NCBI GenBank assembly: GCA_951406725.2 | Contig: OX597839.1 | Span: 992,001 to 1,056,000 of the forward strand | Length of the DNA stretch: 64,000 nucleotides | Direction: 5' to 3' | Source of the DNA: Octopus vulgaris | Lineage: Eukaryota | Shown: positions 9,807 through 11,880 of the stretch, piece after piece | How the letters are laid out: each line of letters begins with the position of its first letter | How positions within the stretch are numbered: the first letter of the stretch is position 1 | Notes under the pieces: model-generated | Told to the model about the DNA's origin: nothing | Database searches by the model: none | What the model saw: only the letters and a program-made list of their open reading frames with translations | Program-made: the position numbers and the translations under genes

Positions 9807-10433
9807 GTAGTGATTAAAAAAATAACTATCTAACCGTGCTCCTTCTTGATCACTATATCGTATATATTTCTATTTTCACACACGACGAATGGAAGTATAT
9901 CGTAATGCTACCGACTCTTCGGTAACTCTGACGGTGAACGAGCTCTATAATGTTCTCTGCTACGTTCCTAGTGGAAAGTGGAATATGTCTTACATATACA
10001 TACATACATACATACATACATACATACATACATACATACATACATACATACATACATACATACATACATACTTACATACACATATATATACATATGAATA
10101 TATATATATATATATATATATATATATATATATATATATATATATATATATATATATATATATATATATATATATATATATATATATATATATTAATTAA
10201 GAGTAGAAATCAATATTTATCAATTAAAACTAGTGGTCTAGCATATTAAAAAAGAATCCGAAGGTTAAATCTTTATATATACCAATTAAGGACTGAATAC
10301 GAAAAAGTGGACACTCAACATGCTAGATATAGACGTCAAATCGCCATTCTCCACAAAAGATTATGTTCTCAGATCAAACTCAACACCAACCCAAGCAATA
10401 AACAAGTGAAAATATACGAAAAACAATACTTAT

Positions 10434-10498
10434 CCATGTACTGAATCAGTTTCCACTATTATTATCCGTAAGGATACCTGTAGTCTTCGTCAGCATGG
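10434..10498 (-). ncRNA. Type I hammerhead ribozyme
   Basis: CCATG-CTGACGA-[stem II with ACTA/TAGT and TATCC/GGATA]-GAAA-CTGattCAG-TA-CATGG; GUA cleavage triplet; stem II closing pair imperfect. Confidence 0.75.
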
Positions 10499-10968
10499 CC
10501 GATATAAATGCAATCTGCTGAACTAGATGCAAAAAACGATACCGGAGTATCATCATGTGCGTAAAGTTCAACCAATTACCTTCGAATGTATATTTCAAAT
10601 GCCTTCCACCTTGGCGCGTTGAGACCCGAAGAAAATAGCCTGCAGCTAATAATTAGCAGCAGTCAATTTATCGGTTAGAGAACATATTTAATCTTCGGAT
10701 TCTTTTTTAATATGCTAGACCACTGGTTTTAATTGATAAATATCGATTTCTACCCTTAATTAATTTTATAAAAAAATAAATATGTTCTCTAACCGATAAA
10801 TTGACTGCTGCTAATTATTAGCTGCAGGCTATTTTCTTCGGGTCTCAACGCGCCAAGGTGGAAGGCATTTGAAATACACATTCGAATGTAATTGGTTGAA
10901 CTCTACGCACATGATGATACTCCGGTATCGTTTTTTGCATCTAGTTCAGAAGATTGCATTTATATCGG

Positions 10969-11033
10969 CCATGCTGAAGAAGACTACATGTATCCTTACG
11001 GATAATAATAGTGGAAACTGATTCAGTACATGG
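10969..11033 (+). ncRNA. Type I hammerhead ribozyme
   Basis: CCATG-CTGAAGA-...-GAAA-CTGattCAG-TA-CATGG; the two copies differ at the free N7 position. Confidence 0.75.
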
Positions 11034-11880
11034 ATAAGTATTGTTTTTCGTATATTTTCACTTGTTTGTTGCTTGGGTTGGTGTTGAGTTTGATCTGAGA
11101 ACATAATCTTTTGTGGAGAATGGCGATTTGACGTCTATATCTAGCATGTTGACTGTCCACTTTTTCGTGTTCAGTCCTTAATTGGTATATATATATATAT
11201 ATATATATATATATATATATATATATATATATATGTATACATATATATATGTATATATATATATGTATATGTATATGTATATATATATATATATATATAT
11301 ATATATATATATATATATATATATATATATATTTATTTATTTATTTATGTACACACAAACGCATACTGTCTGCGGTGGGTAAATTGTCGCCATTTATATT
11401 TTTAGTTTGGCGCATGCGTATTGATTGCTTTTGTTTTTTGTGGACTACACAGTATAGCAGGTTCTGTTGTGAGAAACACAGCACCATGACATAATTTATT
11501 CACTCAGCAATTAAGAAACGACATGCTGTACTGCTTGGCATTCACGCCAGAAGATCCAATACGAATATTTCATAGTATATGGCTGTCAAACCGAGGACAA
11601 TGCAGAGGATTTGGAAAGAATTGGATGAGCCTAATGGTGATTACGAAGTTTTTTTGAGTGATCAGAACTTTAGAGCATCAAGTATTTAGATAATCTTACT
11701 TAAGATAACCTTACTGCGTGGCGTTCAATCATATAATAACATTAATAATAATAATAATAATAATAATAATAATAATAATAATAATAATAATAATAATAAT
11801 AATAATAATAATAATAATAATAATAGTAGTAATAATATATATATATATATATATATATATATATATATATATATATATAT

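Follow-up and report, generated by a model that had tools for sequence, protein, structure and literature searches.

Two unrelated hammerhead-bearing repeat units, probably inserted independently, occupy paralogous (TA)n tracts of an inverted duplication in Octopus vulgaris

The 64-kb stretch of Octopus vulgaris DNA analysed here (the window) is eukaryotic, has a GC content of 37%, and is rich in microsatellites. A masked self-comparison within the window revealed an inverted duplication, about 310-16806 against 57632-40118, whose arms differ by 353 substitutions in 8,690 aligned bases. Each arm holds a (TA)n tract that is filled by a non-coding insert, and the features that frame the two inserts are as follows.

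310..16806, no strand, left duplication arm (4.1% substitutions, 16 blocks)
9028..9995, plus strand, left 5' flank, with its paralog at 50593-49634 (29/960 substitutions)
9994..10193, no strand, (ATAC)n block followed by pure (TA)n at 10098-10193, left arm
11186..11348, no strand, (TA)n tract of the left arm with the (TATATG)n block common to the right arm
11362..11732, plus strand, left 3' flank, with its paralog at 47666-47294 (20/371 substitutions)
40118..57632, no strand, right duplication arm, inverted, from the self-comparison
47690..47829, no strand, (TA)n tract of the right arm with the common (TATATG)n block
49570..49635, no strand, short (TA)n run of the right arm followed by the (ATAC)n block

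The paralogy of the flanks, proposed in a preliminary description of this DNA, is confirmed: 9850-9990 differs from 49640-49790 by 3 substitutions in 140 positions and 11350-11500 from 47535-47690 by 4 in 144, both in inverted orientation. The unique flanks continue to the (TA)n tracts in both arms without large loss. Because the (ATAC)n and (TATATG)n blocks are kept in both arms, the inserts must lie within the same pure (TA)n sub-run, and the same locus is indeed filled in both arms, as had been described.

The surroundings contain further rearrangements. A second duplication, direct and 92-99% identical (20194-26815 and 31818-38488), is sited between the inverted arms. Two old imperfect palindromes with an arm identity of 75-78% are found at 9165-9402 and 17492-17752, the first of them common to both duplication arms (50227-50464). 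Only the right arm carries a 546-nt element in its (TAA)n tract (42255-42800, against 14651-14793), and a second copy lies at 54081-54626. A match to the mind bomb SH3 repeat domain is present at 60647-60997 (E 2.7e-5), and the duplications may form part of a mind-bomb-like gene cluster.

The two inserts are composed of the following parts.

10194..10690, minus strand, left-family copy of 497 nt, its 3' end (end 2) adjoining the tract at 10194
10686..11185, plus strand, left-family copy of 500 nt, its 3' end (end 1) adjoining the tract at 11185
10686..10690, no strand, 5'-5' joint of the two left copies with at least 5 nt in common, unit order taken from family contigs
47830..48765, minus strand, right family, a 491-nt unit repeated 1.91 times in tandem, its 3' end (end 1) adjoining the tract at 47830
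48764..48765, no strand, 5'-5' joint of the right insert, 2 nt in common
48764..49569, plus strand, right family, 1.64 copies, beginning inside stem II of a hammerhead, its 3' end (end 2) adjoining the tract at 49569

The left insert (10194-11185, 992 nt) is the palindrome of about 1 kb that had been noted, with its two copies head to head. The structure of its unit was read from family contigs, obtained from 4 of 21 runs, one of them possibly the window's own sample, that were aligned to 10691-11190 at 82% likeness. The unit is multi-copy, with 801-1,496 contigs per run in all four runs. In each of these runs, contigs pass from the unit end to the unit start on the same strand by way of 11-13 extra letters; this holds for 8 of 9 end-to-start rows, and the ninth rejoins 13 bases further in. 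Moreover, the supposed central joint at 10762-10777 is bridged, with 31 or more bases on either side, by 3 of 32 contig pieces among the matches listed. Since the contigs both close end to start and bridge the central joint, the left unit is about 512 nt long and closes on itself. In one run, four contigs pass from the unit into (TA)n at 10761, in agreement with end 2. Read in this way from sequence, the left insert comprises two near-monomers, 497 and 500 nt long and circularly permuted, that stand head to head and overlap at 10686-10690. The locus-specific 5'-5' joint itself is absent from the three contig joints listed, but contigs drop rare forms, and this absence carries no weight.

Two other origins of the palindrome, a single copy interrupted by an inverted one, with 5 nt of target duplicated, and a replication template switch, were rejected because both supposed junctions are native to the unit in the family contigs. 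Each left copy ends 12-14 nt short of the full unit, as from a single pass round a circle; local microhomology explains this shortfall equally well, and the right copies are longer than one unit. Summed contig depth over 10691-11190 is 100- to 1,000-fold higher round both 3' ends than at the ribozyme in all four runs. A ribozyme-less derivative of the unit may exist, but contig depth cannot rank the parts of a unit.

The right insert (47830-49569) had been described as an array of 1.74 kb. This is correct as to its length of 1,740 nt and its 491-nt tandem repeat, but the insert is also a palindrome, its minus strand carrying 1.91 units and its plus strand 1.64. Its copies differ at only 1 of 491 and 2 of 445 bases (0.2-0.5%), and the repeats follow each other at exactly 491 nt on either strand, neither (TA)n nor a variable seam lying between them. 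In a survey of unit words, which shows presence and not copy number, part of the unit was found in 20 of the 21 runs listed and at least half of its 46 words in 15 of 21. These runs come from 9 studies under six organism labels, leaving out a feces RNA run in which 4% of the words occur; in six presumed RNA runs, which may be DNA, 46-54% of the words are present. One metagenome scan gave no match to the unit pattern. For 48532-49020, near-identical words under six organism labels point either to closely related organisms or to a young family that has spread widely.

The inserts had been called unrelated, which is borne out in sequence and not in architecture or ribozyme type, both of which they have in common. 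They do not align over their length: in three scorings, 6, 21, and 9 of 150 shuffles reached the left-against-right score, and 16/200 and 29/200 did so after the unit register was corrected. Each insert, however, is a head-to-head pair of a non-coding unit of about 500 nt (GC 34% and 37%) with its 3' ends outward, and all four 3' ends adjoin (TA)n. The units contain no ORF longer than 68 codons, no RT or GIY-YIG ORF and no coding remnant. Each family has two 3' ends, which lie 157 and 245 nt past the predicted ribozyme cut in the left insert and 129 and 233 nt past it in the right, where each faces a (TA)n tract; the offset within the unit is 88 nt (left) and 104 nt (right). Both 5'-5' joints show microhomology. 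The earlier wording of two ribozyme arrays likewise applies to the tandem right insert but not to the left one, whose two head-to-head near-monomers form no tandem array.

Remote kinship of the two units was considered and rejected. A 26-nt likeness just past both ribozymes was reached by 8 of 2,000 shuffles, and whole-unit tests were not significant; the stretch was picked after being seen, as one of six pairs, and remains a hint. A relation of the left unit to a PLE 3' end was also set aside, the score being reached by 2/150 shuffles in one scoring and by 93/150 and 94/150 in others.

A short end motif, CCTTAATT (CCTTRATT-like), lies ahead of each end position in the plus-strand left copy and occurs with one change at the actual end of the minus-strand copy. 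An older element at 38520, described below, carries the exact motif ahead of its end, whereas of the right ends one matches it apart from a single base and the other shows only a loose likeness. The GIY-YIG element of the window, also described below, ends without it. At window base frequencies, the chance of the motif within 8 positions is about 5e-4 for an exact match and about 3e-3 with one mismatch. The motif is a lead only, because its definition comes from these very ends and because the commonest left subfamily is variable at this place.

The hammerhead motifs of the inserts are the following.

10434..10498, minus strand, type I hammerhead, left, with a family-type core, predicted cut after 10439, stem II without a closing pair
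10969..11033, plus strand, type I hammerhead of the second left copy, predicted cut after 11028, relaxed descriptor
47951..48057, minus strand, type I hammerhead, right, predicted cut after 47959, both descriptors
48442..48548, minus strand, type I hammerhead, right, predicted cut after 48450, both descriptors
49238..49344, plus strand, type I hammerhead, right, predicted cut after 49336, strict descriptor and folding

With a strict type I descriptor, three matches were obtained over the window, each of them within the right insert, against none in 20 shuffles. The left motif fails this descriptor. Relaxation at the base of stem II, set after the left motif had been seen, gave six matches (two left, three right, and one at 39131), and a seventh, at 44609, appeared once a single core mismatch was allowed; neither version matched in 15 shuffles. 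Searches with Rfam found no hammerhead at either threshold, with no match of any kind over the window at gathering thresholds and only miRNA-hairpin-type and other chance matches on the inserts. At the positions of the left stem II closing pair, no other letter occurs among the family contig variants listed; the missing pair looks like a trait of the left family, although an absent variant row proves nothing. In addition, paired changes in stems I and III distinguish the left motif from that at 39131, in a comparison of two sequences.

The catalytic fold of the right motif at 49238..49344 lies within 0.4 kcal/mol of the minimum-energy fold, and the constrained catalytic fold of the left motif lies 2.9 kcal/mol above the minimum and still has two extra core pairs. 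The monomers of both units fold well below shuffled sequences (z of -4.3 and -5.4, 30 shuffles each). Both units may cleave themselves, and circular RNAs of the units would be possible products. Every long copy reads through the ribozyme site.

Two further elements in the window serve as controls.

38520..39190, minus strand, older tandem with a period of about 449, 82% identical, ending at a (TA)n run
44406..45774, minus strand, 5'-truncated PLE with a C-terminal GIY-YIG endonuclease (E 3.7e-6) and a CX4CXXC linker

The older tandem carries a hammerhead motif at 39076-39136 that resembles the left one with paired stem changes. The PLE, which sits in a (TA)n tract, has a decayed hammerhead at 44570-44614; the paralogous tract of the left arm (13065-13100) is empty. 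Since it has no clear sequence in common with either unit, this PLE is no more than a candidate mobiliser.

Metazoan retrozymes were defined, and PLEs named as their likely mobilisers, in PMC7229834; in another study, retrozymes are derived from pLTRs, and cleavage is reported for 1 of 9 predicted dimers (10.64898/2026.07.22.740005). The present units resemble the non-LTR retrozymes of these two sources in being non-coding, with a GC content below 50%, a type I hammerhead and a strongly self-paired monomer. They are also alike in having head-to-tail units that coexist with PLEs, and the right insert has two consecutive motifs on its minus strand. The left insert differs in not being tandem at the locus, although its family closes head to tail in 4/4 runs. 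At about 491 and 512 nt, the units are longer than the 150-450 bp given in PMC7229834 and lie within the 51-972 bp of 10.64898/2026.07.22.740005. The head-to-head arrangement inside (TA)n does not appear in the retrozyme descriptions in the accessible parts of either source. Both inserts are best read as non-LTR retrozyme-like units, of a known kind and belonging to new families.

The arrangement of the inserts recalls the PLEs. According to the following reports, PLEs have inverted 5'-truncated copies, tails, a (TA)n bias, and a CX2-5CXXC linker (PMC8557442), head-to-head is the commonest of their inverted forms, pLTRs move cargo in trans (PMC3846280), and hammerheads occur in pLTRs, including opposite-strand pairs (PMC4209133). 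As in EN+ PLEs of the Neptune type, the inserts combine an inverted 5'-truncated copy, a one-sided extension, a microhomology joint, a (TA)n target and a type I hammerhead. Unlike those elements, they lack an RT or GIY-YIG ORF, and their extensions of 88 and 104 nt compare with a usual PLE tail of 30-40 nt (PMC8557442). A biochemical parallel is provided by the Poseidon element PAc of Anolis, for which it is reported that both strands of AT-rich DNA are cut and extended in vitro, that two internal start sites define the tail, and that uncleaved RNA is the main template (PMC11167929). By analogy, both-strand priming from two internal starts may be proposed for the units here. PAc, in contrast, belongs to a different clade, its starts lie inside the start of the ORF, and its tail is short in the same account. 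For Octopus vulgaris, 31 recently active Penelope-like families have been listed (PMC13282606).

Based on this evidence, two non-autonomous, hammerhead-bearing families of PLE-type retroelements, with units of about 512 and 491 nt, probably inserted independently into the paralogous (TA)n tracts after the duplication. In the proposed mechanism, transcription would yield a multimeric or circular RNA of the unit, and a PLE protein acting in trans (a Neptune-type GIY-YIG enzyme) would nick both strands of the self-complementary (TA)n. From each nick, reverse transcription would be primed at one or the other of two fixed start sites inside the unit, and microhomology would then join the two cDNAs at their 5' ends. 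That the mobilising enzyme may be a PLE protein is suggested by analogy with these systems. Points that weigh against the whole reading are the failure of the left motif under the strict descriptor and its less favourable constrained fold, the eight of nine predicted retrozyme dimers that showed no cleavage in 10.64898/2026.07.22.740005, and end offsets beyond the length of the PLE tail.

The inserts might instead be the 5'-truncated ends (pseudo-LTRs) of autonomous PLEs and not independently mobile retrozyme units. This is unlikely, although less so than the other alternatives. In its favour, truncated PLEs are described with head-to-head pLTR pairs and with hammerheads 100-700 bp apart on opposite strands (PMC4209133). 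It is opposed by the exact 491-nt period of the right unit on both strands without a (TA)n or variable seam, by the closure of the left unit on itself in 4/4 runs, and by the lack of any coding remnant in the inserts.

The preliminary description had offered independent insertion after the duplication as one of two explanations, and for the right insert this is now firm (p of 1e-7 and 6e-6 in Fisher tests against the arm rate), while for the left it is only probable. Judged from copy divergence, the right insert clearly arose after the duplication. Between the left copies, 13 of 486 sites are different, or 2.7% (95% CI 1.4-4.6%), where 19.7 differences would be expected at the age of the duplication. 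This divergence gives a two-sided Fisher p of 0.15 against the arm rate and 0.38 against the two local flanks; with flat priors, a likelihood ratio of about 13 favours an age after the duplication over one before it. The left insert thus probably postdates the duplication as well, and the order of events was probably an earlier left and a recent right insertion, both after the duplication. The age of the left insert is subject to the caveat that conversion between the arms hides age, that palindrome arms can homogenise, and that two templates inflate age. At 10877 both letters are found in multi-copy contigs, which would fit two templates for the left copies.

The uncertainty about the left insert leaves room for an older one. 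It is rather improbable, but conceivable, that the left insert predates the duplication and that the right arm lost or replaced it and then took up a member of the younger family. In that case, the loss would have occurred by recombination between the two (TA)n tracts flanking the insert in the right arm, or by excision, with refilling later. The confidence interval of the left divergence includes the arm value of 4.1%. A palindrome of about 1 kb between identical repeats is expected to be deletion-prone, which counts in favour of a loss. Several letters common to both left copies also differ from the pooled family; these can be subfamily traits, however, because multi-copy contigs exist only 3 letters from the left sense copy. 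An old left insert is further opposed by the likelihood ratio given above, the absence of any left-unit remnant from the right arm and of any scar from the flanks, and the need for an extra event. The second explanation of the preliminary description, replacement of one insert by the other during repair of a fragile tract, gains no positive support, there being neither a flank scar nor a left-unit remnant in the right arm.

A speculative extension, which is doubtful, would treat the (TA)n tract as an exchangeable socket in which retrozyme families replace each other at fixed loci. In such a cycle, the PLE endonuclease might cut the tracts flanking an older palindromic insert and so cause its scarless loss, and the tract might be refilled by twin reverse transcription of the circular RNA of another family; both steps are equally doubtful. 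The same holds for the suggestion that the start sites are marked by the CCTTRATT-like signal a few bases before the ends, as in three families here. A further alternative, that the arms are two haplotypes of one locus joined in one contig, with the inserts as alternative alleles, or that the palindromes are fold-back artefacts, is very improbable. The arms are 4.1% divergent and carry several arm-specific insertions, the left copies differ at 13 sites, and the flank that follows both palindromes is the expected one and not an inverted one.

Independent insertion after the duplication, which remains the preferred reading, does not call for an unusual locus. Such elements occupy 4 of the 19 (TA)n loci in the window. 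With three inserts, the probability of one doubly filled pair is 0.20 for 8 paired tracts and 0.27 for the 6 in which both partners have a pure run of 16 or more bases, and it is 0.30 or 0.24 when computed from the occupancy rate. Because (TA)n is a class-wide target and double filling by chance has a probability of 0.20-0.30, the single hotspot invoked in the preliminary description is not needed. It is most likely that each copy of the tract gained a ribozyme retroelement because PLE-dependent elements target TA repeats, and the double filling is real but ordinary, most likely a result of class-wide targeting plus chance.

Another microsatellite pair of the same duplication behaves in the same manner. 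In the (AAT)n pair 1782-2519 and 53992-56229, the left arm contains a 450-nt non-LTR 3' fragment, and the right partner contains a member of a distinct though related family (53% identical in amino acids over 92 residues) together with another insert. These non-LTR elements are presumably of the R4/Dong type. Targeting of microsatellites by such non-LTR elements is known in general (PMC4640811). That the (TA)n tract is a true locus-specific hotspot, a fragile site capturing ribozyme RNAs during break repair, is the least probable of the alternatives, for although both arms are filled inside the same sub-run, the chance of double filling, the (AAT)n pair filled likewise by different retroelements, and the family-specific 3' ends, which favour enzyme-directed priming, all argue against it.

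Unrelated hammerhead units with PLE integration marks were not found in the full-text literature searched, most subscription journals and repeat databases lying outside it. At the present locus, two unrelated non-coding hammerhead units carry such marks, namely the signs of priming on both strands, a pair of start sites and a (TA)n target. This provides locus-level support for the proposal that PLE enzymes mobilise animal retrozymes in trans. In addition, the units represent short, young templates, with a candidate start signal, for in vitro work.
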